Positions 2,487 to 38,769 of a DNA stretch of 43,282 nucleotides are shown piece after piece. Both the position numbers and the translations under genes were made by a program. This DNA is from Candidatus Woesearchaeota archaeon (lineage in GTDB: Archaea > Nanobdellota > Nanobdellia > Pacearchaeales > GW2011-AR1): assembly GCA_964624735.1 (NCBI GenBank), contig CAZUXN010000002.1, forward strand, positions 1-43,282, written 5' to 3'. Each line of letters begins with the position of its first letter. Position 1 is the first letter of the stretch. The notes below the pieces were generated by a model. The model was not told where the DNA came from. It worked only from the letters and a program-made list of their open reading frames with translations, and did no database searches.

Positions 2487-2612
2487 GAGGCTGTGGCGCA
2501 GCCCGGTAGCGCACCGCTCTGATAAGTACGAACTTGTTCGTTCATTTGCGAAATCATCGTTCACGAGATTTCAGAAAGGCGGGGGTCCCAGGTTCAAATC
2601 CTGGCAGTCTCA
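2487..2612 (+). tRNA. tRNA-Ile (anticodon GAU) with a ~52-nt intron at the canonical 37/38 position
   Basis: Hand fold: acceptor GAGGCTG/CAGTCTC, D arm GCGC-AGCCCGGTA-GCGC, anticodon stem CCGCT/GGCGG, loop CTGATAA (GAT at 2521-2523), T arm CCAGG-TTCAAAT-CCTGG, discriminator A2612, no encoded CCA. Intron ~2525-2576. Loop CTGA (2519-2522) pairs with TCAG (2571-2574), leaving an AAA bulge next to the stem (BHB-like). Confidence 0.85.
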
Positions 2613-3349: not shown

Positions 3350-3673
3350 TTATATTTTCTGGTTGAGCCATTGTTTGATTGTGGCTTCTGGTTGGGCTCC
3401 TGTAAACTCATCTACTACTTTTCCGTCTTTGAAGAATTTTACAGAGGGGATAGACATTATTCCGTATTTGCTGGCTTGGGTTTGGTTTTTTTCTGTTTCG
3501 GCTTTTGCTAAGATTAGTTTGCCTTCATATTCTATTGCGATTTTTTCTAAGACTGGTCCGAGCATCATACACGGTCCACACCAGCTTGCCCAGAAGTCCA
3601 CAAGAACTGGGATTGTTTTTGATTTTTCTATTACTTCTTTTTCGAAGGTTTCGTCGGTTACATTGAGTTCCAT
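3350..3673 (-). CDS. trxA: Thioredoxin
   Basis: 107 aa with WCGPC active site (DFWASWCGPCMM) and thioredoxin-fold length. Confidence 0.9.
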   Translation of the reverse strand: MELNVTDETFEKEVIEKSKTIPVLVDFWASWCGPCMMLGPVLEKIAIEYEGKLILAKAETEKNQTQASKYGIMSIPSVKFFKDGKVVDEFTGAQPEATIKQWLNQKI

Positions 3674-3849: not shown

Positions 3850-5607
3850 ATGGATTATTCAAAGATTTGCAGTGTTTATGCTGCATTAGAAGGAACGAGT
3901 AAGGGATTGGAGAAGACGGATATATTGGCGAAATTTTTAAGGAGGATTCGTGATGAGCCGGAGTTGATTTATCTTTTGCAGGGTCGGGTGTTTGCGGATT
4001 ATGATAATCGGGAATTGGGGATTTCGCATCAATTGATTATTAAGGCGATTGGTCGGGTGGCTGGAATTGGTGAGGATGTTGTTGTTGAGAAGTTTAAGGA
4101 ACTTGGGGATTTGGGGAAAGTTGTCGAGGCTGTTTTGGGAAGCAAAAAAAAACAAAAGGTTTTGTTTAAAGAAAAGTTGAGCGTTGAGAAGGTGATGGAG
4201 AATTTGCGGAAGGTTCCGACTTTTGAGGGGAAAGGGACTGTTGATTTGAAGATTGGGTTGATTGTTGAGTTGTTGCATTCGGCGACGCCGGAGGAAGCGA
4301 GGTATATTGTGCGGACTGTTTTGGGTGATTTGAAGATTGGGGTTGGTTCTGGGATTTTGAGGGACGCGATTGTTGTGTATTGTTTTGAGCCTAAAAATTT
4401 GGAAGACAAAAAGATTTGTGTTAAGGCTGTTCAGGAGGCGTATGATAAGGCGACAGATTTTGCTGAAGTTTTTGCGAAGGCGCGTGATGATTTGCTGGAG
4501 AAGATTAAGTTGGAGCCCGGGAAACCTGTGAAAGTTATGTTGTTTCCGAAGGCGAAGGATGTTGAAGATGCGTTTCGGATTGTTGGTCGGCCGGCGGCGT
4601 TTGAATATAAGTATGATGGGTTTAGAGTTATGGTGAATAAAACAGATGGCAGAGGACAGAGGGCAGAAGACAGGGTTAAGATTTTTACTCGTCGACTTGA
4701 GGAGGTTACTAAGCAGTTTCCTGAGATTGTTGAGTATGTTAATAGTTATGTGAAGGGAGAGAGTTTTATTTTGGATTGTGAGGTTGTTGGGTTTGATGCT
4801 GGGACTGGGAAGTATACGAATTTTCAGGCGATTAGTCAGAGGATTAAACGGAAGCATAGGATTGGTGAAATGATGGCGAAGTTGCCGGTTGAGTTGACAA
4901 TTTTTGATGTGATTTATTATGATGGGATTAGTTTGATTGAGACGGCGTTTAGCGAGAGGCGGGCTTTGATTGAAAAGATTGTTAGTGAGGACGAGAAGAG
5001 GATTGTTTTGGCGAAGCAGATTGTGACTGGCGACGATAAAGTTGTTGAGAAATTTTACGAGGAGGCGTTGAGTGAGAATCAGGAGGGATTGATGGGGAAG
5101 AGTTTGTCGGCGCCGTATAAACCTGGGGCTCGGATTGGTTATGCGGTGAAATTGAAGCCGGAGGATAATGATTTTGATTTGGTGATTATCGGGGCTGAGT
5201 GGGGGACGGGGAAGCGGGCTGGGTGGTTGACGAGTTTTGATGTGGCTTGTCAAAACTCGTCGCAGGTCGCAGGTCGCGATTCGCTGGTCGATGGGGAAGA
5301 TTTGAGCAGCAAAGGGAAGTTGTTGCAGGTTGGGAAAGTGTCGACGGGGTTGAAAGAGAAGCCCGAAGAAGGTTTGAGCTTTAAGGAGATGACTGATATG
5401 TTGGAGAAGTTGGTTGTTGAAGTTAAGGGGCGGAAGATTAAGGTTCGACCGGAGATTGTTGTGACGGTTCAGTATCAGAATGTGCAGAGGTCGCCGACGT
5501 ATTCTTCGGGTTATGCTTTGAGGTTTCCGAGGATTTTGGGGTTGAGGGAGGATAGGGGTGTTTCGGATATTGCGACGCTGGATGAAGTTGAGGAGGAAGC
5601 GGTTTGA
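3850..5607 (+). CDS. lig: ATP-dependent DNA ligase
   Basis: Adenylation motif EYKYDGFRV, and a DNA-binding/adenylation/OB order typical of archaeal Lig. The start is moved to MDYSKI (ATG 3850) rather than the track's upstream codon. Contains two repeat-derived inserts (see repeats). Confidence 0.9.
   Translation: MDYSKICSVYAALEGTSKGLEKTDILAKFLRRIRDEPELIYLLQGRVFADYDNRELGISHQLIIKAIGRVAGIGEDVVVEKFKELGDLGKVVEAVLGSKKKQKVLFKEKLSVEKVMENLRKVPTFEGKGTVDLKIGLIVELLHSATPEEARYIVRTVLGDLKIGVGSGILRDAIVVYCFEPKNLEDKKICVKAVQEAYDKATDFAEVFAKARDDLLEKIKLEPGKPVKVMLFPKAKDVEDAFRIVGRPAAFEYKYDGFRVMVNKTDGRGQRAEDRVKIFTRRLEEVTKQFPEIVEYVNSYVKGESFILDCEVVGFDAGTGKYTNFQAISQRIKRKHRIGEMMAKLPVELTIFDVIYYDGISLIETAFSERRALIEKIVSEDEKRIVLAKQIVTGDDKVVEKFYEEALSENQEGLMGKSLSAPYKPGARIGYAVKLKPEDNDFDLVIIGAEWGTGKRAGWLTSFDVACQNSSQVAGRDSLVDGEDLSSKGKLLQVGKVSTGLKEKPEEGLSFKEMTDMLEKLVVEVKGRKIKVRPEIVVTVQYQNVQRSPTYSSGYALRFPRILGLREDRGVSDIATLDEVEEEAV
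4641..4675. repeat. 7-nt-period array (AACAGAT GGCAGAG GACAGAG GGCAGAA GACAGGG) inside lig
   Basis: Read directly. Encodes ..TDGRGQRAEDR.. just after the KYDGFR motif, where Pyrococcus ligase (recalled: VHKDGDKIIVYSRRLE) is about 7 aa shorter. Confidence 0.7.
5229..5294. repeat. 12-bp perfect fold-back hairpin plus five 7-nt units inside lig
   Basis: GACGAGTTTTGA (5229-5240) / TCAAAACTCGTC (5250-5261) with a 9-nt loop, then TCGCAGG TCGCAGG TCGCGAT TCGCTGG TCGATGG (5260-5294). In frame (..QNSSQVAGRDSLVDGE..). Confidence 0.85.
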
Positions 5608-10521: not shown

Positions 10522-11328
10522 ATGGAAAAGGGAAAAAAATCGGAAGTCGGAAGTCGGAAGTCGGAAGGAATAATTGGGACGACAAAAAAGACTGAGGTTA
10601 AAGAAGTTAAGAAGCTGGATGATGTTAAAGATAGTCTTGAGAATAAGGCGGCATTGGCAGCACACTCTGGTGTACCATCTGAGGATGGCAAAGCTGAGGG
10701 GAAAAGTAGCTCACGGATTACACAGATTAATACGGATTCTGAAAAAGGAAAATGGAAATCTAAGAAGGACAAAAAAAAGGAAGTTGTTGAGTTGGAGAGG
10801 GAGTATGTTGTGCCGTTGAGGCGTGGTTTTTTGAATGTGCCAAAGCATAAGAGGGCGAAGAAGGCAGTTAAGGTTTTGAAAGAGTTTATGGTTCGACATA
10901 TGCGTGTTCGTGATGGGGATTTGAGAAAAGTGAAGATTGATGGTTATTTGAATAATGAAATTTGGTTTAGGGGGATTAAGAAACCGATGGGGAAAATTAA
11001 AGTCCGGGCTAGGAAGATTGATGGGATTGTTTATGTTGAATTGGCTGAGATTCCTGATGTTGTGAAGTTTGTGAAGTCGCGTGAAGAGAAGCGGAAGTTG
11101 GCAGCTGAGAAAATTAAGCCAAAGAAGGTTAAGGCTGAGAAGGAAGTTGTTGACGAAGATAAAGATAAGGATGGGGTTGATGATAAGAAGGAGGAGGCTG
11201 AGGATAAGAAGGCTGGGGCTGAGAAGGCGGCGAAGGTTGAGAAAGCGGTTTCTAAGGAGATGAAGCATACGGCTCAAGGGAAGCATTTGAAGAAGACGAT
11301 GCCGGTTCGGAAGGCGCTCAAAAAATAA
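10522..11328 (+). CDS. rpl31e: 50S ribosomal protein L31e (eL31) with ~90-aa N-terminal and K/E-rich C-terminal extensions
   Basis: Core EREYVVPLRRGFLNVPKHKRAKKAVKVLKEFMVRHMRV...IWFRGIKKPMGKIKVRA. There is no in-frame ATG between 10522 and the core, so the true start is uncertain (TTG near 10789 is possible). Confidence 0.75.
   Translation: MEKGKKSEVGSRKSEGIIGTTKKTEVKEVKKLDDVKDSLENKAALAAHSGVPSEDGKAEGKSSSRITQINTDSEKGKWKSKKDKKKEVVELEREYVVPLRRGFLNVPKHKRAKKAVKVLKEFMVRHMRVRDGDLRKVKIDGYLNNEIWFRGIKKPMGKIKVRARKIDGIVYVELAEIPDVVKFVKSREEKRKLAAEKIKPKKVKAEKEVVDEDKDKDGVDDKKEEAEDKKAGAEKAAKVEKAVSKEMKHTAQGKHLKKTMPVRKALKK
10540..10567. repeat. Four perfect TCGGAAG units
   Basis: TCGGAAGTCGGAAGTCGGAAGTCGGAAG read directly, 18 nt after the rpl31e ORF start. 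Confidence 0.9.
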
Positions 11329-11345: not shown

Positions 11346-11445
11346 TTAGAGCGGCTTCGCTTTGTAGAACGCTTCGCTTGTAGAACGGAAAAATTTTAAT
11401 TTTTCCTCGTAGAACGAAAAGACTTTGTCTTTTCTTGTAGAATGA
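11346..11445. repeat. Intergenic array of GTAGAAC heptamers separated by unrelated perfect hairpins
   Basis: GTAGAAC at 11364, 11380 and 11409, GTAGAAT at 11438, TAGAGC at 11347. Intervening GCTTCGC (x2), GGAAAAATT-TT-AATTTTTCC and GAAAAGAC-TTT-GTCTTTTC. Confidence 0.8.
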
Positions 11446-11488: not shown

Positions 11489-12190
11489 ATGGAAATTGTT
11501 AGGAAGGAGTTGCAGGAGTTTGCTGATTCGGAGAAGGCGAAGATTTTACAGAGGTTTTTTAAGACTGGGTCGGGGCAGTATGGGGAAGGGGATGTTTTTT
11601 TGGGGGTGAGTGTGCCGAAGTTGAGGTGGATTGCTAGGAAGCATTGGGATAGGATTAATATGGATGAGATTGAGAAGATGTTGAGGTCTAATATTCATGA
11701 GAAGAGGTTGGTTGCGTTGTTGATTTTGATTGAATTATTTAAGGATAATCCTAAGGTGGTTTATAATTTTTATTTGAGGAATTTGAAAGGTGTTAATAAT
11801 TGGGATTTGGTTGATTTGTCGGCGCCTAAGATTATTGGGAGTTATTTATTGGATAAAAAAGATAGGGGAATTTTGGATGAATTGGCATCGTCGGAGAATT
11901 TGTGGGAAAAGCGGATTGCGATTGTTTCGACTTTTACCTTTATCCAGGATGGGGAATTTGATGATTGTTTGAGGATTGCTAAGGTTTTGCTTAAAGATAA
12001 ACATGATTTGATTCATAAGGCTGTTGGGTGGATGCTTCGTGAGGTTGGGAAGAGGGACGAGGATTTGTTGAGGGAGTTTTTGGCTAGGCATTATAATGAA
12101 ATGTCTAGGACAACTTTGAGGTATGCGATTGAGAGGTTTGGGGAGGATTTAAGAATTAAGTATTTGAAGGGTGACTATGAAAGACTTTAA
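11489..12190 (+). CDS. DNA alkylation repair protein (AlkD/AlkC-like HEAT-repeat family)
   Basis: 233 aa. ..AKILQRFFKTGSGQYGEGDVFLGV..NNWDLVDLSAPKIIG..WEKRIAIVSTF..HKAVGWMLREVGK matches the recalled DNA_alkylation family pattern. Confidence 0.7.
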   Translation: MEIVRKELQEFADSEKAKILQRFFKTGSGQYGEGDVFLGVSVPKLRWIARKHWDRINMDEIEKMLRSNIHEKRLVALLILIELFKDNPKVVYNFYLRNLKGVNNWDLVDLSAPKIIGSYLLDKKDRGILDELASSENLWEKRIAIVSTFTFIQDGEFDDCLRIAKVLLKDKHDLIHKAVGWMLREVGKRDEDLLREFLARHYNEMSRTTLRYAIERFGEDLRIKYLKGDYERL

Positions 12191-12446: not shown

Positions 12447-13007
12447 ATGGTAAAGAGAATTAGTATTTTTATTGATGGAGCTAATTTTTATCATGGGTTG
12501 AAAACTATTAATTTTAGATACTCTGATATTTTTTTTGATTTTGAGAGGTTTGTGAAAAGGTTGGTTGGGAACAATGAATTGATTAATGTTTATTATTACA
12601 ATGCTCCGCTGAAGGAGAATTTGAATAAGTATGTTTATTGGAATCAGATGAAATTTTTTGGACGGCTTAGGAAGATTTCAAAATTTAAAGTTGTTTTATG
12701 CAAGAGGCAAAAGAGATTGGATGAGAATAAGGATGAGTATTATGTTACTAAGGGGGATGATATTCATTTGGCGTTGGATATGTTGTGTGATGCCTGTAAG
12801 GATAAATATGATAAAGTGATTTTGGTGAGTGGTGATGGAGATTTTGCTCCTTTGGTAAAATATGTTAAGGAAGAAGGAAAGGATGTTATTAATTATTGTT
12901 TTGAGGGCTCTGTTTCTCGGGATTTGTTAAAAGAGTTTTCTAATGAAAATAGATTTGTTATTGATAGAAAAGTAGTTAATAAGTTCTTTTTGAGGAATAG
13001 AAGATGA
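12447..13007 (+). CDS. NYN-domain (LabA/DUF88-like) putative RNase
   Basis: ISIFIDGANFYHGL...VILVSGDGDFAPLVKYVKEEGKDV matches the NYN/LabA signature. Its stop overlaps the cbf5 ATG (ATGA). Confidence 0.8.
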   Translation: MVKRISIFIDGANFYHGLKTINFRYSDIFFDFERFVKRLVGNNELINVYYYNAPLKENLNKYVYWNQMKFFGRLRKISKFKVVLCKRQKRLDENKDEYYVTKGDDIHLALDMLCDACKDKYDKVILVSGDGDFAPLVKYVKEEGKDVINYCFEGSVSRDLLKEFSNENRFVIDRKVVNKFFLRNRR

Positions 13008-13885
13008 AAGATATTAAGGAATTGTTAGATTTTGGCTTGATTAATATTGATAAGCCGGCGGGGCCGACGTCGTTTTCGGTGAGTGAGTTTATTCGGAGGC
13101 AACTTGGATTGTCTAAGACTTCGCATATGGGGACGCTTGACCCGAAGGTGACTGGGGTTTTGCCGATTACTTTGGGGCGGGCTTGTAAGTTGGCGGGATA
13201 TTTTATTAAGCATGATAAGAGTTATATTGGGGTTTTGGAGACGCATCGGGAGTGTGATATTGTTGAGTTGCAGAAGTTGATTGATGAGAATTTTGTTGGG
13301 AAGATTAAGCAAACGCCGCCGCATCGGTCGGCTGTGCTTCGAAAAGAAAGAACACGAGAGGTGTTCTTTTGGAAACTTTTCGAAGCGGGGTGTCGGGATT
13401 CGGGGTGTCGGGATGTCGGTGACTTGGGCAACAGAAGTAAGAGTTTTTTGTTTGAGTGTAAGGTTGAAGGTGGGACTTATATTAGGAAGTTGTGTTCGGA
13501 CTTGGGCGGGATGATTGGTGGGGCACATATGGGGGAATTGCGGAGAACTAAGGCTGGGATTTTTAATGAAGAGAAAATTTATTCGCTTTATGAATTTGAG
13601 AGGGCAGTTGAATCGTGGAAGAATGGGGATGATGGTTTATTGAAGGAAATGATTGTGTCGGCGGATGATGCGATTCGCGAGGTTTTGCCTGTGGTTGAAG
13701 TTGATAAGTCTGCTTTGGCGTCTTTGTATGTTGGTCGACCGTTGCTGAAGTTTAATGTTGTTGGTGGGGTTGATGTTGAGACTGGGGAGGTTTTTGCTTT
13801 GTTTTGTGGAGATGTTTTTGTTGGGGTTTATATGAGGAGTGGTGAGGAAGCTGTTTTTGGGCGTGTTGAGTTTGTGAAGAATTGA
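13004..13885 (+). CDS. cbf5: tRNA/rRNA pseudouridine synthase Cbf5 (TruB family) with PUA domain
   Basis: GLINIDKPAGPTSFSVSEFIRR..SHMGTLDPKVTGVLPI (catalytic Asp), GGTYIRKL, C-terminal PUA-like region. Confidence 0.9.
   Translation: MKDIKELLDFGLINIDKPAGPTSFSVSEFIRRQLGLSKTSHMGTLDPKVTGVLPITLGRACKLAGYFIKHDKSYIGVLETHRECDIVELQKLIDENFVGKIKQTPPHRSAVLRKERTREVFFWKLFEAGCRDSGCRDVGDLGNRSKSFLFECKVEGGTYIRKLCSDLGGMIGGAHMGELRRTKAGIFNEEKIYSLYEFERAVESWKNGDDGLLKEMIVSADDAIREVLPVVEVDKSALASLYVGRPLLKFNVVGGVDVETGEVFALFCGDVFVGVYMRSGEEAVFGRVEFVKN
13337..13428. repeat. 19-bp interrupted fold-back hairpin plus 7/8-nt-period TCGGG array inside cbf5
   Basis: CTTCGAAAAGAAAGAACAC (13337-13355), loop GAGAG, GTGTTCTTT (13361-13369), bulge TGGAAA, CTTTTCGAAG (13376-13385). 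Then CGGGGTG TCGGGAT TCGGGGTG TCGGGAT GTCGGTG ACTTGGG. Encodes ..EAGCRDSGCRDVGDLGN.., absent from M. jannaschii Cbf5 as recalled. Confidence 0.8.
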
Positions 13886-24552: not shown

Positions 24553-24569
24553 CCTAGTCCCAGACTAGG
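24553..24569. other. Perfect 7-bp hairpin between the VR-like and TR-like repeats
   Basis: CCTAGTC-CCA-GACTAGG flanked by GGGG/T-run on the + strand (A-run/CCCC on the minus strand). Confidence 0.6.
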
Positions 24570-24627: not shown

Positions 24628-25335
24628 CTATTTTTTCGAGCCGACGCCTTCGGCGTGAACCAGCCCCACCCGGCCATCGCCGCCCGAATCCGCGAGATTG
24701 TCGTTCCAGACGATCAGGTTGCCGTCGCCCACATATAGCCTCGACAATCCGGTCCGTTTTGTAAAAACTTTAATCTTAGTACCATCAAACTCTATTTTTT
24801 TTTCGTTATTTGAATAGGCGAATCTTGGGTCTATGATTATTTGTGTTTCATCTGTTTCTACAAATTTGTATCCTTGTTTGGTATTTGCTTCGGCTATTCT
24901 TAATCCGATAAATCTTGCTGGGTTTTCTGAGTCGTAAGATATATTACCTTGGTTTTTTGCTATACCTGCTAAGTTAGTTGATGGTTGGGATACATCGTTT
25001 GAGTAAAGTATTGCTTCTTTTATGTCGGCGTATATTCCTTCGAATGGGTTTATATTGTTGGCTTGCCCATGGGCGATTATTCTTACTGCGTCTTCTAGGG
25101 ATAGGGTTGCTATATTTGTTCCTTTTAGGAGTTCTGTTGTTGCTATTACGAAGGGTAGACTTGAGCCTGTGGCGTTTTCTATATTGAATCCGGAGTTCAT
25201 GATTGTTTTGTATCCTGGTGAATCTTTACCAAATCTTCCGATTAGAAAATCATTTACCCTTTGATACATAGATAAATCTGCTTGTATAATTCTTAATCCA
25301 TTTGTTGCGGGGATATCTATGTTTAGGTTTGCCAT
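24628..25335 (-). CDS. Hypothetical protein; candidate former DGR target (VR-like C-terminus)
   Basis: 235 aa, no recognised fold. The last ~35 aa (SRLYVGDGNLIVWNDNLADSGGDGRVGLVH..) are encoded by a locally GC-rich stretch repeated at 24362-24434. Confidence 0.6.
   Translation of the reverse strand: MANLNIDIPATNGLRIIQADLSMYQRVNDFLIGRFGKDSPGYKTIMNSGFNIENATGSSLPFVIATTELLKGTNIATLSLEDAVRIIAHGQANNINPFEGIYADIKEAILYSNDVSQPSTNLAGIAKNQGNISYDSENPARFIGLRIAEANTKQGYKFVETDETQIIIDPRFAYSNNEKKIEFDGTKIKVFTKRTGLSRLYVGDGNLIVWNDNLADSGGDGRVGLVHAEGVGSKK
24676..24748 (-). repeat. Variable-repeat-like copy (inside the CDS 3' end)
   Basis: See 24362-24434. There are 14 mismatches, 7 of them at adenines of the RT-proximal copy. 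Confidence 0.6.
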
Positions 25336-27864: not shown

Positions 27865-27928
27865 TTTCGCTAGCTGTTCGGTGTTCGCTATTCGGTGTTA
27901 GCTTAAGTGTTGCGCGGTTCGTCCGCGC
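27864..27928. repeat. 7-nt-period array flanked by a palindrome and a GC hairpin
   Basis: AACGCGTT palindrome (27859-27866). GTTTCGC TAGCTGT TCGGTGT TCGCTAT TCGGTGT TAGCTTA AGTGTTG. Then GCGCGG-TTCGT-CCGCGC (27912-27928) plus TTTT. Confidence 0.8.
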
Positions 27929-27968: not shown

Positions 27969-28562
27969 ATGGTTGGGAAACTTAGAATATTAGCTGCTGC
28001 GGATTTACATGGGAGTTTAGATATTGCTAAAAAATTATCTATGAAGGCGAAGAAGAATAAAGTTGACCTTGTTGTTTTGGCCGGGGATATTTATGGGTAT
28101 AGCGAGGGGGAGCCTGGGATTTTGGAGCCGTTTCGAAAGGCGGGGCAGAAGGTTATATTTGTGCCGGGGAACTGTGATTTTGATGAGGAGCATGAGATGT
28201 TGAAGAAAGAGGCGAAGAGTATTCATAATTATTATGTGAATTATGGTGGTGTTGGGATTGTTGGGATTGGGAATCCGAATTGGAAGTTGAGTTTGGATGG
28301 TGGGGACTTGGCGGAAATTAAGCGGAATTTTGGGAGGATGAAGGCGGGGAAGAAGATTTTGGTTTCGCATTTGCACGCGGCTGGGACGAAGGCGGAGTTT
28401 TCTGGGATTCCTGGGGATGATGTTATTCGGGACGCTGTTGATGAGTTTAAGCCTGATTTGTTGATTGCGGCGCATATTCATGAGGGCGAGGGGATTGAGG
28501 ATAAGATTGGGAAGACTCGGGTTGTGCAGGTTGGACGGAAGGGGAAGATTTTGGAGATTTAG
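27969..28562 (+). CDS. Calcineurin-like metallophosphoesterase (YfcE/MJ0936-like)
   Basis: AADLHGS, AGDIYG, PGNCD, SHLH, AAHIHEG motif series. Confidence 0.8.
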   Translation: MVGKLRILAAADLHGSLDIAKKLSMKAKKNKVDLVVLAGDIYGYSEGEPGILEPFRKAGQKVIFVPGNCDFDEEHEMLKKEAKSIHNYYVNYGGVGIVGIGNPNWKLSLDGGDLAEIKRNFGRMKAGKKILVSHLHAAGTKAEFSGIPGDDVIRDAVDEFKPDLLIAAHIHEGEGIEDKIGKTRVVQVGRKGKILEI

Positions 28563-30021: not shown

Positions 30022-32211
30022 ATGGTTAAGAAGAATGCGACCTTGATTATTACAGAGAAACCGGCGGCGGCGGAGAAGATAGCGGCGGCTTTGAGTGGGG
30101 CGACTGATGAGAAGATTACGAATAAGGATAAGGTTTCGTATTATGAGTTTTACAAGGGAAGTCGGAGATATATTATTGGATGTGCGGTTGGGCATTTGTT
30201 TGGGATTCAGCAGATTGCGAAGAGGGGGCCGTTTCCTAATTTTGAGGTTGAGTGGAGGGCGTCTTATAATAAGAAGGGTGGGGCTTTTACTGAGAAGTAT
30301 TTGAGAGTTTTGAAAAAGTTGGCGAAGGAATGTGATGAGTTTATTGTTGCAACGGACTTTGATGTCGAGGGAGAGGTGATTGGTTGGAATGTTGTGCGGT
30401 TTGTTTGTGGAAAGAAGGATGCTAAAAGGATGAAGTTTTCTTTGTTGACGAAGGAGGCGTTGGATAAGTCGTTTGAGAATTTGTTGCCGACGCTTAATTG
30501 GGGCGCGGCGATTGCGGGGGAGACTCGACATTATATTGATTGGTTTTATGGGATTAATTTGTCGCGGGGTTTAATGAAGGCGTTGAGCTCGACTGGGACT
30601 TTTAGGATTTTGTCGATTGGTCGGGTTCAGGGGCCGGCGTTGAAGATTGTTGCGGACAGGGAGAAAGAGATTCGGGATTTTGAGTCGGAGCCGTATTGGA
30701 ATGTGTTTTTGCAGGTTCAGGATTCGAAGGGGCAGAGAGTTGAGGTGAAGCATCCGAAGGATATTTTTAAAGAGAGTGAGTTGTTGAAGTTTAAGCATTT
30801 GCAGGGGAAGAAAGGTGTTGCTTCTACGAAGATTAGTGACGATGAAGTTAAGGCGCCTGTTCCTTTTGATTTGACGACGCTGCAGACTGAGGCGTACAAG
30901 AATTGTGGGTTTACTCCGACGCAGACTTTGAAGGCGGCGCAGAATTTGTATTTGGCTGGGGCGATTTCGTATCCGAGGACTTCGAGCCAGAAGTATGATG
31001 CGTCGATTGGGTATGATAAGATTTTGAAGAATTTGAAGAAGTATACGACGGCTGTGAAATATGCGGTGAATTCGAAACCGACCGAGGGGACTAAGGTTGA
31101 CCCGGCGCATCCTGCGATTTATCCTACTGGTGAAGCTAAGAAAATTCCTGAGAGGGATAAGAAAATTTATGATTTGATTGTTAAGCGGTTTATTGCTTGT
31201 TTTTGTGATTCGGCTTTGGTTGAGAATAAGAGGATTAAGGTTGTTGTGAATGGTTTGGATTTTGGTGCGAAGGGAGTGCAAATTAAAGAGAAGGGTTGGA
31301 TGAATGTTTATCCGCATGGGACTAAGGAGTCGAAGGTTCCGACGATGAATGGGGATGTTGATGTTTTGGAGATTCGGACCGAGGAGAAAGAGACGAAACC
31401 GCCAAGAAGATATTCTGCTGCGTCGTTGGTTAAGGAGTTGGAGAAGAGGAATTTGGGGACGAAGGCGACTCGGGCGGCGATTGTTGAGACTTTGTATTCT
31501 CGGGGTTATGTTAGGGAGAAGAGTATTGAGGTTACGGAGTTGGGGATGAGAATGGAAGAAACGCTTGAGAAATATTCGCCGATTATTTTGGATGAGAAGC
31601 TTACTCGAGCTATGACTGAAGAATTAGAGAAGCTCGAGTCGGTATTCGGTATTCGGGGTGTCGGGGTGTCGGAGCTTGATAAGTTGAAGAAAGGTGAGAA
31701 GAAAATTTTGGATGAGGCGAAGGTTGTTGTGACGAAGATTGCCGAGGGGATGAGCGCTAATTTGGATAAGATGGGGAAGTCACTTGCTGATGCGAATGCG
31801 GTTGTTTGGGAGCAGGAGAAGGAGGCGAATACAATGAGCGAGTGTCCAGTTTGTCATAAAGGGAAGTTGAGGGTTATGTATGGGAAAAAATTTGGGAGAT
31901 ATTTTGTTTCGTGTGATGCTTATCCGGAGTGCAAGACGATTTATTCTTTGCCGCCGCGTGGTGCTATGCGCCCCGCGAGAAGACAGACGACAGAGGACAG
32001 AGGACAGAGGACAGAGGAGTTGGAGATGTGTGAGGAGTGTGGGTTTCCGAAGGTTGCGGCGTTCAAGAAAGGTGGGGCGCCTTGGAGGTTTTGTTTTAAT
32101 CCGGCGTGTCCGTCGAATGCGGAGTTGACGAAGAAGAAGGAAGAGTTTAAGGCGAAGATTGCGAGTGGTGAGATTAAGGTTGATGAGGATGGGAAGGTTG
32201 TTGAGAATTAG
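30022..32211 (+). CDS. topA: Type IA DNA topoisomerase
   Basis: TOPRIM (LIITEKPAAAEKIA, ATDFDVEGE), active-site region GAISYPRTSSQ, C-terminal Zn ribbons (CPVCHKG..CDAYPEC, CEECGFP..CFNPAC). Start moved to MVKKNATL. Confidence 0.9.
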   Translation: MVKKNATLIITEKPAAAEKIAAALSGATDEKITNKDKVSYYEFYKGSRRYIIGCAVGHLFGIQQIAKRGPFPNFEVEWRASYNKKGGAFTEKYLRVLKKLAKECDEFIVATDFDVEGEVIGWNVVRFVCGKKDAKRMKFSLLTKEALDKSFENLLPTLNWGAAIAGETRHYIDWFYGINLSRGLMKALSSTGTFRILSIGRVQGPALKIVADREKEIRDFESEPYWNVFLQVQDSKGQRVEVKHPKDIFKESELLKFKHLQGKKGVASTKISDDEVKAPVPFDLTTLQTEAYKNCGFTPTQTLKAAQNLYLAGAISYPRTSSQKYDASIGYDKILKNLKKYTTAVKYAVNSKPTEGTKVDPAHPAIYPTGEAKKIPERDKKIYDLIVKRFIACFCDSALVENKRIKVVVNGLDFGAKGVQIKEKGWMNVYPHGTKESKVPTMNGDVDVLEIRTEEKETKPPRRYSAASLVKELEKRNLGTKATRAAIVETLYSRGYVREKSIEVTELGMRMEETLEKYSPIILDEKLTRAMTEELEKLESVFGIRGVGVSELDKLKKGEKKILDEAKVVVTKIAEGMSANLDKMGKSLADANAVVWEQEKEANTMSECPVCHKGKLRVMYGKKFGRYFVSCDAYPECKTIYSLPPRGAMRPARRQTTEDRGQRTEELEMCEECGFPKVAAFKKGGAPWRFCFNPACPSNAELTKKKEEFKAKIASGEIKVDEDGKVVEN
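31603..31675. repeat. 9-bp inverted repeat plus 7/8-nt-period TCGG array inside topA
   Basis: ACTCGAGCT (31603-31611) / AGCTCGAGT (31631-31639), then TCGGTAT TCGGTAT TCGGGGTG TCGGGGTG TCGGAGC (31639-31675). Encodes ..ESVFGIRGVGVSE.. Confidence 0.75.
31977..32018. repeat. Six 7-nt units GAGAAGA CAGACGA CAGAGGA x4 inside topA
   Basis: 42 nt = 14 codons (..RRQTTEDRGQRTEE..) between two Zn-ribbon modules. The unit is nearly the same as in the lig array at 4641-4675. Confidence 0.85.
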
Positions 32212-32266: not shown

Positions 32267-32959
32267 ATGAAAAGTGACCTTGGAGATTTGGCTGGTCTGA
32301 TTGGTTTATATCAACGTGTTCGGGTGGTTGAGAGAAATCCCGATGCGGCTGGAGCTTCAAGAGAATTGTTAGAAGCGAGAAGATTACATGAGATTAGAAT
32401 TAATGGGTTGATGGTTAATAGGGGATATGCTGCCCAAGAGAATCCGGTTTTTGATTATTGCTTAAGATGTTTTAATGGAGGTTCTGATGGTAGAGGTGCG
32501 CTTGATTTTTCGCCTAGAGTGAGAAGATTTATTCGTTATGCTAATGCGAATCAGGGGGGATATATTCTTTCTGCTAATGGAGATGTCCCTGAGGATATTG
32601 GAGTTATTGATGGCGAAGCCCGATTTGAAATGGATAGAACTTTTAGGTATTTGGTAGTTCCGGTTAAGAGACTGAGAACAAATATTGAAGGAAAATGGGA
32701 GAAGAAGTGTTTCTTTAATACTAAAACTAGAGAACCTGGTTTTAATGAAAATAGATTTATGGTTTCTCCTTATGTTTTTAGTGGCAAAAGAGAATGTGAG
32801 GATGATGCTTGGCATGGAGATGTTCCTGGAATGCCCAATGGAAATTCTAGAGTTTCGGTTTATATTGGAGATGGAAGAGTTACTGAATTCTTAGATAGAG
32901 GTTATGTGACGAACGTTCCAGCCAAAGAGAAAAAAGTTGTCTTAAGTGTTCTAAGTTAA
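32267..32959 (+). CDS. Hypothetical protein (orphan)
   Basis: 230 aa, no TM and no recognised motif. Its 3' end overlaps the convergent radB-like gene by 4 nt. Confidence 0.5.
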   Translation: MKSDLGDLAGLIGLYQRVRVVERNPDAAGASRELLEARRLHEIRINGLMVNRGYAAQENPVFDYCLRCFNGGSDGRGALDFSPRVRRFIRYANANQGGYILSANGDVPEDIGVIDGEARFEMDRTFRYLVVPVKRLRTNIEGKWEKKCFFNTKTREPGFNENRFMVSPYVFSGKRECEDDAWHGDVPGMPNGNSRVSVYIGDGRVTEFLDRGYVTNVPAKEKKVVLSVLS

Positions 32960-33708
32960 AATAGTCCGCGTTTTCTTATTCCGGTGTTGATAATTTCGAA
33001 TGCTAATTCTTTGACTGGGAGAGAGCGGTGTTTTTTTAGGATGAGTTTTCTTTTGTTGTTGTAGCCTTTGAGTTCGATTAGGCATTTGGACCAGTATTTT
33101 AGGAGGTCGCCGCCGACCATGGAAACGGAACGCTCTAGCGTTCCGTCGCTATTAGCTATTAGCTGTTTGCTTTTAGGTAAGAATTGGGAGTAGACTTGGT
33201 TTGTTACGATTACTGGGATATTTTGTTTTCTTGCGATTTCGTTTAAGGTTCTTAGTTGTTTTGCAAGTTTTCGGTTTACTTCTGAAATTTTTTCGTTGTT
33301 TTTTGATTGTATCGCTTCGCCGAGTTCGAGTCGGTAGAGCATTGCGATGCTGTCTATTATAATTAATGATATGTTTTCTTTTTTGACGTGTTTAAGCATT
33401 TGGTTGAAGGCTTTTTCTTGTTCTGTGAACGAGGTTGGCTTTAAGAGAAAAATGCTTTGAAGGGCGGCATCGATTTCTTCTTTTGTGCCTTGGTGAATTT
33501 GTTTGAAACGTTCGGTTGAGAATCCACCCTCGGTATCGATGAATATTACTTTGTTTCCTTTTCTGGCTTGGGATGTTGCGACGATGACGCAGAGGTTTGA
33601 TTTGCCTGAGCCGCCGGGGCCGTAGAGGGTCGTGATGATGTCGGTTTCGTAGCCGCCTTGGAGGAAGGTGTTTAGTTCGTATGAGCCGGCTGAGATTTTA
33701 TTGGTCAT
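32956..33708 (-). CDS. radB: RadB-like RecA-superfamily ATPase
   Basis: Walker A LYGPGGSGKSNL, Walker B-like LIIIDS. Start moved to MTNKISAGSYELN (ATG 33708), overlapping the upstream stop. Confidence 0.65.
   Translation of the reverse strand: MTNKISAGSYELNTFLQGGYETDIITTLYGPGGSGKSNLCVIVATSQARKGNKVIFIDTEGGFSTERFKQIHQGTKEEIDAALQSIFLLKPTSFTEQEKAFNQMLKHVKKENISLIIIDSIAMLYRLELGEAIQSKNNEKISEVNRKLAKQLRTLNEIARKQNIPVIVTNQVYSQFLPKSKQLIANSDGTLERSVSMVGGDLLKYWSKCLIELKGYNNKRKLILKKHRSLPVKELAFEIINTGIRKRGLF
33127..33179. repeat. 7-bp perfect hairpin plus five 7-nt units inside radB-like gene (antisense to the gene)
   Basis: GGAACGC-TCTA-GCGTTCC (33127-33144), then GTCGCTA TTAGCTA TTAGCTG TTTGCTT TTAGGTA (33145-33179). 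Encodes ..KQLIANSDGTLERSVS.. Confidence 0.8.
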
Positions 33709-34205
33709 TTGATTAGGTCCTTCAAGGTTAGTATTGAACTTACTGGAAATTCGAGGTTTGGGCTTGCTCTTTCTACTATAACGCATGCTTGGATATTTTT
33801 TACTCCAAATCTTTTTAGAATTTCTGCTGTAGCTGTGATTGATGAGCCGGTAGTGAATACATCATCAAGTATTGTTACATAATCATCGGTTGTTGGTATG
33901 TAGCCTTCAATTTGTTTTTCCATTCCATAATCTTTTTGTGTGTTTCTGATTGGGGATAGTGGAATATGATAAATGAGGTGATAGGCAGTAGCTATTGGGA
34001 TGCCTCCTATCCCTATTCCTGCAACACAGGTTGTATTTGCTGGTACAATGTTATGAAGGGACTGGGCGCAAAGTGGAAGAAATTCTGGATCTCTATATCC
34101 CGCTTTTATGTCAATATAAAAATTAGTTTTTTCTCCTGCTCGAAGTATATGGTCTCCAGGTTGGATTATACCTAATTCGTGAATTTTTGCAATTAATTCT
34201 TTCAT
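33705..34205 (-). CDS. Type I phosphoribosyltransferase, orotate PRTase-like
   Basis: PRPP loop VTILDDVFTTGSS, GIGIGGIPIATA. 166 aa. Confidence 0.65.
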   Translation of the reverse strand: MKELIAKIHELGIIQPGDHILRAGEKTNFYIDIKAGYRDPEFLPLCAQSLHNIVPANTTCVAGIGIGGIPIATAYHLIYHIPLSPIRNTQKDYGMEKQIEGYIPTTDDYVTILDDVFTTGSSITATAEILKRFGVKNIQACVIVERASPNLEFPVSSILTLKDLIK

Positions 34206-38172: not shown

Positions 38173-38769
38173 TTAGTTTTGAAATTGTAGGATTAACAAT
38201 TCTTCCATAAATATTTTTTTCTTGGCGACGATTTTTGGGTTGTATTTTTTTATTCTGTTTATTGGGGTTAGGGTTGAGATTAGGAGGAATATTTTGCCGT
38301 TTTTGGTTAAATGTTTTTTTGCTTGTCTTAGGAATTTGATTGAAATTTCGTCGCCGTGTTTGCCGCCGGTTGTTGCAAGTTGTGAATCTTTTGGTTCTTT
38401 TTTATCGAAGGGGAGATAGGGAGCGTTGAATACTATCAAATCGAAACGATTTGATGTTGTTGGTTTTTGGTTTTTGGTTGTTGGTAATGGAATGTTTTTG
38501 AATAAGTTGGATTTTATTGCTTTGAATCCTTTTTGTTTTAGGAGTTTTACCGATTTTAGGTTGATGTCTATTGGGGTTATATTTTTTTTGTTTAGGAATT
38601 TTGAGGCTGTTTCTGATAGGATACCTGAGCCAGTGCCCATGTCTAACATTTTTATTGAAGATAAAAATGTGGGTGTTGGGTAGTGGGTGTTGGGTTGTAG
38701 GCTTTTGAGATATTTTTTTAGAAAGTTCGCGAAGAAGTATGAGTCTTCGGCTGTTTGATAAATTTCCAT
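38173..38769 (-). CDS. HemK/PrmC (Mtq2)-like SAM-dependent methyltransferase
   Basis: SAM motif LDMGTGSGIL and FNAPY (NPPY variant). Confidence 0.7.
   Translation of the reverse strand: MEIYQTAEDSYFFANFLKKYLKSLQPNTHYPTPTFLSSIKMLDMGTGSGILSETASKFLNKKNITPIDINLKSVKLLKQKGFKAIKSNLFKNIPLPTTKNQKPTTSNRFDLIVFNAPYLPFDKKEPKDSQLATTGGKHGDEISIKFLRQAKKHLTKNGKIFLLISTLTPINRIKKYNPKIVAKKKIFMEELLILQFQN
38435..38490. repeat. 9-bp perfect hairpin plus five 7-nt units inside the methyltransferase gene (antisense to the gene)
   Basis: ATCAAATCG-AAA-CGATTTGAT (38435-38455), then GTTGTTG GTTTTTG GTTTTTG GTTGTTG GTAATGG (38456-38490). Encodes ..PLPTTKNQKPTTSNRFD.. Confidence 0.85.

Follow-up and report, generated by a model that had tools for sequence, protein, structure and literature searches.

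The cbf5 gene and its in-frame insert

The DNA considered here, called the window, is a stretch of 43,282 nucleotides from a Candidatus Woesearchaeota archaeon (contig CAZUXN010000002.1 of assembly GCA_964624735.1), and the element in question is a DNA hairpin followed at once by a short tandem array, both lying within the coding sequence of cbf5. This gene occupies positions 13004-13885 of the plus strand and encodes the H/ACA pseudouridine synthase, a protein of 293 amino acids with Pfam matches to TruB_N (1.9e-18; 67.7 bits, cut-off 27.3) and TruB_C_2 (4.2e-15; 56.1 bits, cut-off 29.3). Archaeal Cbf5 proteins are its best matches among solved structures, its orthologues in metagenome-assembled genomes of Pacearchaeota and Nanoarchaeota are annotated as Cbf5, and the source names of the closest homologues likewise place it in these DPANN lineages. 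The catalytic aspartate, D46 in HMGTLDPKVTG (GTLDP motif), is invariant among 43 orthologues. Also present is the thumb loop (beta7_10 loop), the element that clamps the substrate RNA; Q103-R118 aligns to the Pyrococcus Cbf5 thumb loop according to the residue mapping of PMC5029457. No PF01472 match to a PUA domain was obtained for the window protein; one orthologue (P0020) has such a match, and the beta-rich C-terminal region of the window protein is confidently modelled.

Relative to insert-less orthologues, the gene carries an in-frame insertion of 39 nt (13 codons) at 13387-13425 on the plus strand. Most close orthologues measure 277-281 amino acids, and the insert-less ones share ...WKLLEAS-E(D/N)GKSFLFECKV at this site; against the M. 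jannaschii and P. abyssi Cbf5 structures (2apo, 2aus) the gap amounts to about 15 residues. An earlier note, made by reading the sequence, had claimed an insertion relative to other Cbf5 proteins, and these comparisons bear it out; the sequence it gave for M. jannaschii is of the P. abyssi type, although both species do lack the insert. In the AlphaFold2 model (mean predicted local distance difference test score, pLDDT, 81) the insertion falls at the tip of a beta-hairpin, between strands E116-129 and E146-154, with residues 132-142 below a pLDDT of 50, so that the insert is predicted to be translated as a disordered 13-residue loop. In none of 102 loci is cbf5 split or frameshifted.

A gene with an NYN domain (predicted RNase), at 12447-13007, extends 4 nt into cbf5 across its start codon (ATGA) and is therefore probably co-transcribed with it. 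A second NYN-domain gene lies at 18017-18589.

A perfect interrupted palindrome that runs into a tandem array

Immediately before the insertion, at a position here named site A, nucleotides 13336-13386 form a perfect interrupted palindrome of 11+9 bp, 20 bp in total. The outer arms, 11 bp and perfect, are GCTTCGAAAAG (13336-13346) and CTTTTCGAAGC (13376-13386); the inner arms, 9 bp and equally perfect, are AAAGAACAC (13347-13355) and GTGTTCTTT (13361-13369). The 5' half (13336-13355) covers the codons for V111-T117, which make up the thumb loop's C-terminal half, and is separated by the hairpin loop GAGAG (13356-13360) from the 3' half (13361-13386), which encodes V-F-F-W-K-L-F-E-A, a beta strand, and holds a 6-nt bulge, TGGAAA, at 13370-13375. 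The earlier note had the 9-bp arm and the 3' bulge right and gave the other arm as 10 bp, one base pair short.

The array begins on the final base of the 3' arm and extends on the plus strand over 13386-13419. It is rich in G and T and consists of 2.2 copies of a 15-nt unit, CGGGGTGTCGGGAT(T/G), with a sub-period of 7/8 nt; Tandem Repeats Finder reports periods of 8 and 15 over the same interval, CGGGGTGTCGGGAT occurring twice at a spacing of 15 nt with the short units head-to-tail. Positions 13387-13412, GGGGTGTCGGGATTCGGGGTGTCGGG, form a canonical (G3+N4)4 G-quadruplex motif under the criterion (G>=3 N1-7) x4, which most other arrays described below do not.

The palindrome folds as RNA with -30.9 kcal/mol (z = -5.8) and as DNA with -18.7 kcal/mol on the plus and -18.1 kcal/mol on the minus strand (z = -6.5 and -7.5), and none of 200 shuffled sequences matches its folding. 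The long fold-back in conserved catalytic-domain coding sequence that the earlier note had pointed out is thus real by inspection and by both kinds of folding. It is the only composite hairpin of at least 17 bp in the window; 40 first-order Markov simulations of the window produced none, so the palindrome is not due to chance, and the surprise expressed at finding a fold-back and an insert together was justified.

Covariation at site A

Site A was compared in the window and 21 GTDB orthologues (22 sequences), to which two further carriers, L102 and L104, were added later. Within the original set the hairpin exists only where an array is present, in the window, L002 and L012, with folding energies of -22 to -28 kcal/mol versus -1 to -13 kcal/mol in the others. 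L102 has the same interrupted hairpin as the window, and in L104 the 3' arm AAACTTCTCG is unchanged and pairs with a different 5' arm. Two pairs have changed on both sides among the window, L002, L012 and L102: one in the outer stem from G-C to A-U, one in the inner stem from C-G to U-A. Three of the four possible combinations are seen, with no G-U intermediate and 93.8% of cells paired, a small sample of four sequences for which the statistics are weak. Most changes lie in the 5' arm, which is only suggestive of an asymmetry between donor and recipient.

The residues encoded by the two arms have conserved counterparts in orthologues without the insert; the palindrome in cbf5 is made of host codons. 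The arrays are unrelated among the carriers: TCGGGGTG/TCGGGAT in the window, TCGGAAG... in L002, (GGTGTTC)x4 in L012 and two copies of a 19-mer in L102. An absent insertion and an unconserved palindrome would have spoken against the earlier note, and the opposite is found, the palindrome being kept with compensatory changes exactly in those orthologues that carry a site A array.

In L103 (about 3390-3470) the coding hairpin upstream of the site A insert is degenerate and the insert is itself palindromic, with GGAACTTC-TAAG-GAAGTTCC nested within GATGATGG...CCATCTTCATC.

A second hairpin and array site in cbf5

In other genomes, G/T-rich arrays follow a different part of cbf5, the RR(T/I)xAG(I/V)FxE segment (site B), where a stem is built from the codons around an invariant GCTGG (Ala-Gly). 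All nine distinct array-bearing orthologues form 6 to 11 of 12 Watson-Crick pairs here, as against 1 to 5 in 53 sequences below the insert-length threshold (Mann-Whitney p = 2.6e-6 for all 14 longer sequences versus these 53). The folding energy upstream of the arrays is -15.9 versus -5.4 kcal/mol (p = 7e-6). Double-sided changes occur at 5 of the 12 pairs, and the covariation score is 0.382, compared with 0.215 +/- 0.03 after shuffling; none of 500 shuffles reaches the observed value, and slid controls score far lower. Several of the stem changes are nonsynonymous at nearly fixed positions (T to I; E to S/C/R).

Another recurrent in-frame insert, encoding [SP][RK]DDSGEP (GAYGAYTCNGGNGANCC), occurs at two cbf5 sites in different lineages (L037 4589-4605, L056 2582-2598, L021 3742-3758 and L069 2460-2476) and also in L036 at 4635-4651, about 100 nt past the cbf5 match. 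It has no adjoining hairpin and is not found in the window.

Hairpin and array modules in other genes

The earlier note dealt with the single case in cbf5. The analysis extends it to a strand-polar module, a hairpin followed by an array, which recurs in many genes and genomes; at least seven further modules, with arrays of period 7/8, lie in other genes of the window. One is in the DNA ligase gene (5229-5277, plus strand), where a perfect 12-bp hairpin (5229-5240/5250-5261) leads into (GTCGCAG)x2.7 at 5259-5277. Its 5' arm, GACGAGTTTTGA (codons L-T-S-F-D), matches the insert-less orthologue L107 exactly, and its 3' arm, TCAAAACTCGTC (codons Q-N-S-S), is new, inserted sequence and the exact reverse complement of the 5' arm. 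Such an insertion, complementary to conserved codons upstream, reads on sequence comparison as the signature expected of an intrastrand template switch. The array (GTCGCAG)n starts inside the 3' arm, within its last three bases (GTC|GCAG...). In L105 the orthologous ligase gene carries this module too, its stem being longer.

Two modules on the plus strand lie in the topoisomerase I gene. In the first (31603-31672) a 9-bp hairpin, ACTCGAGCT/AGCTCGAGT at 31603-31639, is followed by a (TCGGTAT)(TCGGGGTG) array at 31639-31672, and in the second (31955-32018) an imperfect hairpin at 31955-31977 by (AGAGGAC)x5.9 at 31978-32018. A weaker example in the metallophosphoesterase gene (28224-28269, plus strand) joins a 7-bp AT-rich hairpin (28224-28245) to (TGTTGGGAT)x2.2 at 28250-28269. 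The other three stand in minus-strand genes and are described as read on the plus strand. The RadA/Rad51-like gene (32956-33786) contains, at 33125-33176, a 9-bp hairpin, ACGGAACGC/GCGTTCCGT at 33125-33146, followed by (GCTATTA)x4.1 at 33148-33176; alignment to PDB structures did not cleanly resolve the insert in this protein. The methyltransferase gene (38173-38769) has two modules, one at 38435-38485 with a 9-bp hairpin (38435-38455) and a G/T array (38456-38485), the other at 38646-38695 with a 10-bp hairpin (38646-38670) and (GTGGGTGTTGGGTA)x2 at 38669-38695, which is also a G-quadruplex motif.

Canonical G-quadruplex motifs number four on the plus strand of the window, with 0.5 expected, and none on the minus strand. 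They lie at 5191-5218, 11567-11591, 13387-13412 and 38671-38694; two of them are hairpin-anchored arrays and one is just upstream of the ligase hairpin.

Period-7 arrays that lack a strong adjoining hairpin were also seen in the window, at 10540-10567, 4642-4673, 23986-24016 and 27871-27903. Arrays of this hairpin-less kind include (TCGGAAG)x4 at the N-terminus of the L31e gene, a heptamer shared with the cbf5 insert of L002, (ACAGAGG)x4.6 within the ligase gene, and two arrays that come shortly before the start codons of the aRF1 and IleRS-like genes on the minus strand. Between the L31e and DNA-alkylation-repair genes, at 11354-11442, 16-nt and 29-nt tandem repeats (GCTTCGCTTTGTAGAAC...) have stable hairpins on both sides.

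The module follows the DNA strand

The association of hairpins with arrays was examined in a general scan of 539 kb, made up of the window and 85 related loci that are non-redundant. Segments upstream of arrays were far more structured than random ones: for 16 of 71 non-triplet arrays containing GC the preceding 46 nt ranked below the first percentile of random segments, as against 2 of 71 on the downstream side. Perfect GC-containing hairpins of at least 9 bp numbered 23, seven of which had an array starting no more than 12 nt downstream and none an array upstream, where chance predicts about 0.01 per hairpin.

These counts bear on the simplest alternative, an ordinary lineage-specific indel in a loop beside an unrelated chance palindrome. 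Loop tips are common sites of indels, and a K/R/E-rich stretch followed by an F/L-rich one brings some inherent purine/pyrimidine complementarity; such a coincidence is nevertheless hardly credible, given the absence of a comparable palindrome from the simulated windows, the one-sided placement of arrays beside strong hairpins, and a strict association of hairpin and array at two cbf5 sites with covarying stems.

In all five modules found in minus-strand genes (the RadA-like gene, the two in the methyltransferase gene, and those in AroE of L023 and AroE of L054), the hairpin is 5' of the array on the plus, G-rich strand, and the order of the two is therefore reversed in the mRNA. The architecture of the module follows the DNA strand and not transcription.

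This polarity tells against an element acting in RNA, such as a bulge-helix-bulge (BHB) intron, a translational bypass, or an mRNA hairpin regulating translation of the insert. The idea has an obvious precedent, cbf5 being the textbook case in Archaea of a BHB intron in a protein-coding gene: the crenarchaeal pre-mRNA intron interrupts the open reading frame and is excised at a BHB cut by EndA (PMC2738675). The present case shares with it the gene, the archaeal host and an extra coding-region sequence beside an RNA secondary structure, and the RNA fold is highly stable. It differs in that the insert is in frame and without a stop, in a gene uninterrupted in 102 of 102 loci, in that there is no BHB, and in that orientation follows the DNA strand. 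The stems, moreover, are nearly all Watson-Crick, and in minus-strand genes the hairpin comes 3' of the array in the mRNA, so that their order is not fixed by the transcript. Because the order keeps to the DNA strand even in these genes, intron, bypass and mRNA signal may be set aside as very improbable.

Two of these candidates were also looked for directly. A relaxed scan of 13300-13500 gave 27 BHB-like matches, compared with 12 +/- 4 in shuffled sequence, none of which excises 13387-13425; such relaxed matches are common in the G/U-rich sequence of the window. For translational bypass, as in T4 gene 60 or mitochondrial byp, the take-off and landing codons do not match (GCG before and GGC after the insert), and there is no in-frame stop.

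GC skew and replication context

The plus strand of the window, from about 2.6 kb to its end, is T-rich and has a GC skew of +0.13 to +0.53 regardless of gene orientation, an exceptional magnitude. At about 2.3-2.5 kb the skew flips sharply, from roughly -0.4/-0.55 to +0.5, across a trough of 24% GC at 1800-2400; this switch at about 2300-2500 may mark a replication origin or terminus. The negative-skew part to its left holds one Cys-rich gene and no arrays. That gene, a repeat-containing open reading frame of at least 666 amino acids on the minus strand (1-2000), is the sole gene there and runs off the left end of the window.

Across the loci, period-7/8 arrays are confined to sequence of high skew, with 35 in the 308 kb at a GC skew of at least 0.30 versus none in the 203 kb below 0.30. 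Arrays and skew are correlated (Spearman rho 0.43, p = 2e-4), the loci being phylogenetically non-independent. Three 21.7-kb loci around ligase orthologues, in which the upstream gene order differs, showed no skew flip, and negative-skew stretches in all loci amounted only to short, gene-sized dips. Richness in G and T is usual for the strand that stays single-stranded for longer, that is, the leading-strand sequence serving as lagging-strand template.

A 126-nt tRNA at 2487-2612 (plus strand; Rfam, 51 bits), which ARAGORN missed, lies exactly at the skew switch and is presumably intron-containing or otherwise non-canonical.

A proposed origin by template switching and slippage

The explanation that we favour, and hold to be somewhat better than an even bet, is that the palindrome and the TCGGG array constitute one DNA-level module, left by a mutational process that is linked to replication and asymmetric between the strands, in a clade of Pacearchaeota-like DPANN archaea whose GC skew is extreme; template switching would make and keep the hairpins, and slippage would build the arrays. 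The G/T-rich strand would be exposed single-stranded as lagging-strand template. There, quasi-palindromic coding sequence could be turned into a perfect hairpin by template switching, one arm being copied as the reverse complement of the other, and repeated switching would hold the arms complementary. Synthesis stalled at the 3' foot of the hairpin might then slip back by 7-8 nt, and units would accumulate head-to-tail from a seed at the end of the arm. Of the products, purifying selection would retain only those that are in frame and lie in tolerant surface loops; the loop in Cbf5 is the tip of the beta-hairpin that follows the thumb loop. Directly observed are the architecture of the modules, their recurrence, their polarity on the DNA, the covariation, the confinement to high-skew genomes and the in-frame placement in loops; we infer the direction of replication, both mutational steps, and which of hairpin and array comes first.

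Template switching during replication is known to yield perfect stems and multi-base compensatory changes in one event (PMC8794818). The modules show several of its marks: a perfect inverted repeat with a short spacer that is improbable by chance, the distinction between donor and recipient arms in the ligase gene, and differences that are clustered. The last is seen between L008 and L012, which are about 55% identical over the hairpin segment of some 50 nt and 85-96% identical in the flanks.

Several observations weigh against this explanation. The direction of replication is read from the skew alone, and none of the loci examined has both replichores with modules in one contig. Strong hairpins are missing from about half of the arrays, and the mechanism leaves the period of 7-8 nt unexplained. 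Identical heptamers (TCGGAAG, TCGGTGT) are found in unrelated genes and genomes, for which simple local slippage does not account. No array indels separate the near-identical loci L002 and L027 (99.6%, five arrays) or L001 and L022 (99.85%), a small sample in which a change of +/-7 nt would be a frameshift. Finally, the site A hairpin is identical at 57 of 60 nt between L002 and L012, though their cbf5 genes are otherwise too diverged for megablast pairing, while L008, 92% identical to L012, is without both of the cbf5 modules that L012 has. This near-identity, together with the lack of the hairpin in L008, calls for recombination, transfer or strong constraint, and not local mutation alone.

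Some of these observations are those that a self-propagating cassette would produce, if an allele with hairpin and array, a form of selfish DNA, spread among relatives through homologous recombination or biased gene conversion and overwrote the plain allele of conserved genes. Such a cassette would resemble the Rickettsia palindromic elements but would have its palindrome within the host's own codons. The preserved hairpin segment of L002 and L012, the presence of both modules in one and neither in the other of two close relatives whose divergence is limited to patches, the existence of close non-carrier relatives of all site A carriers (window, L002, L012, L102) and the sharing of heptamers by different genes would all follow. 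There is, however, no conserved consensus for an element, and there are neither terminal repeats nor a target duplication; the arrays at one site differ completely among carriers, every residue of the arms has its counterpart in the alignment to insert-less homologues, and no associated nuclease or transposase was identified. Restriction to high skew and strand polarity fit a replication process more simply, and we regard the spreading allele as unlikely.

The conservation of the stems could instead reflect a selected cis-acting signal in DNA, a site of single-stranded pausing, priming or protein binding or a combination of hairpin and G-quadruplex, kept by purifying selection in spite of amino-acid changes. 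Stems that covary even through nonsynonymous changes, in the Cbf5 thumb loop and in the RRT-E-AGIF segment, would be in keeping with such a signal, as would a polarity fixed on one DNA strand and the excess of G-quadruplex motifs, all on the G-rich strand and two of them arrays. No sequence is common to the stems, though, so that no sequence-specific binder is implied; the modules are scattered within unrelated genes at irregular spacing, most arrays are not G-quadruplex motifs, and close relatives do without the modules. Compensatory change without intermediates is, furthermore, what template switching also predicts (PMC8794818). A selected signal seems to us about as improbable as the cassette, and both alternatives are kept alive by the recurring heptamers, the hairpin-less arrays, the 7-8 nt period and the near-identity of L002 and L012.

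A broader proposal, for which we see a minor though slightly better chance, is that the modules are more than passive mutational scars and that high-skew DPANN archaea have a dedicated system, specific to one strand, that makes or targets them, either an enzyme recognising hairpins in single-stranded DNA and adding or copying 7-8-nt units, or cassettes that spread in populations by gene conversion over conserved coding sequence. A dedicated system or self-driving cassettes would amount to a new kind of genetic element inside essential genes.

Relation to known systems

The ingredients of the module are already known: template-switch mutagenesis, hairpin-stimulated slippage and, as a case of in-frame palindromic selfish DNA, the Rickettsia palindromic elements. 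Template-switch or quasi-palindrome mutagenesis (the Ripley model; E. coli studies; Monttinen and Loytynoja, 2022, PMC8794818) likewise turns imperfect into perfect inverted repeats in single multi-nucleotide events, inserts the reverse complement of nearby sequence and keeps stems through seemingly compensatory double changes, and the ligase 3' arm and the L008/L012 pair fit this description. The modules differ from it in lying in conserved essential coding sequence, where they persist across diverged lineages, and in their one-sided coupling to an array and confinement to extreme skew, features not part of the described phenomenon.

Slipped-strand mispairing stimulated by hairpins also involves a hairpin on a single-stranded template that stalls synthesis, adjacent misalignment and dependence on the replication strand. 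Palindrome-associated deletions and duplications with a lagging-strand bias were reportedly observed in E. coli by Trinh and Sinden in 1993 and by Pinder and co-workers in 1998. The known cases are experimental and occur between pre-existing direct repeats, whereas the arrays of 7-8 nt described here are fixed in frame and always on the 3' side of the hairpin.

The Rickettsia palindromic elements, said to have been described by Ogata and co-workers in Science in 2000, measure 100-150 bp and form dispersed families of conserved sequence with the palindrome inside the insert. Like the modules, they are palindrome-associated DNA placed in frame in conserved genes and tolerated at the protein surface. 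The modules agree with them in this tolerated surface position and depart from them in the rest: no consensus unites them as a family, what is inserted is simple tandem repeat sequence, and the palindrome is not contained in the insert (the ligase gene has its 3' arm alone as inserted sequence). From one site or genome to another both stems and arrays change, and all that recurs is short cores (TCGG...) and a few heptamers.

Simple-sequence contingency loci, which are phase-variable and occur in bacterial surface genes, resemble the arrays in having short tandem units within open reading frames and a period that is not a multiple of three. The arrays here are instead in essential housekeeping genes, fixed in frame and anchored to hairpins, without copy-number variation between near-identical genomes. 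REP/RAYT and IS200/IS605 elements target the lagging-strand template, have conserved hairpin sequences and an HUH/Y1 enzyme, and are mostly intergenic; they share with the modules a dependence on DNA hairpins and a replication-linked bias in orientation, and the conserved hairpins, HUH/Y1 enzyme and intergenic location were not seen for the modules.

In the literature that could be searched, on heptanucleotide repeats, Pacearchaeota, palindromes, GC skew and in-frame selfish DNA, no description of the module was found. Absent from it is the combination of a perfect palindrome in conserved codons of essential genes, its maintenance with covariation across lineages, its systematic coupling to a one-sided non-triplet array, polarity on the DNA strand and confinement to an extreme-skew DPANN clade. 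The recurrence of the module in the same orientation in many genes suggests a previously undescribed replication-linked process that rewrites essential genes.

If this is correct, the structure of nucleic acids would shape the coding sequence of essential genes, alongside protein function, across a clade of ultra-small archaea: amino acids of the Cbf5 thumb loop and of other conserved segments would be exchanged to preserve perfect pairing in a DNA stem, and housekeeping proteins would acquire non-triplet repeats. The modules would then allow template switching and hairpin-induced slippage to be studied on a large scale in natural sequences, and would tie these processes to the unexplained extreme GC skew and hence to replication and repair in DPANN archaea, which cannot yet be studied in culture. 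Compensatory covariation within coding regions can mimic functional RNA structure, and inserts of this kind can mislead alignments, phylogenies and gene calls for these lineages.

Reverse-transcriptase-related features

A diversity-generating retroelement was considered on account of the RT-16 RNA described below and rejected, as there are no pairs of template and variable repeats, the modules are located in housekeeping genes, and the neighbouring open reading frames lack a reverse-transcriptase domain.

Elsewhere in the window, at 24434-24569 on the minus strand, lies a full-length match (83.8 bits) to the RT-16 RNA motif (RF03019), a motif described beside reverse-transcriptase genes. The open reading frames that flank it (24065-24433 and 24628-25335, both on the minus strand) have no Pfam match, and a related genome (L105) encodes an RVT_1 protein at 1386-2405.

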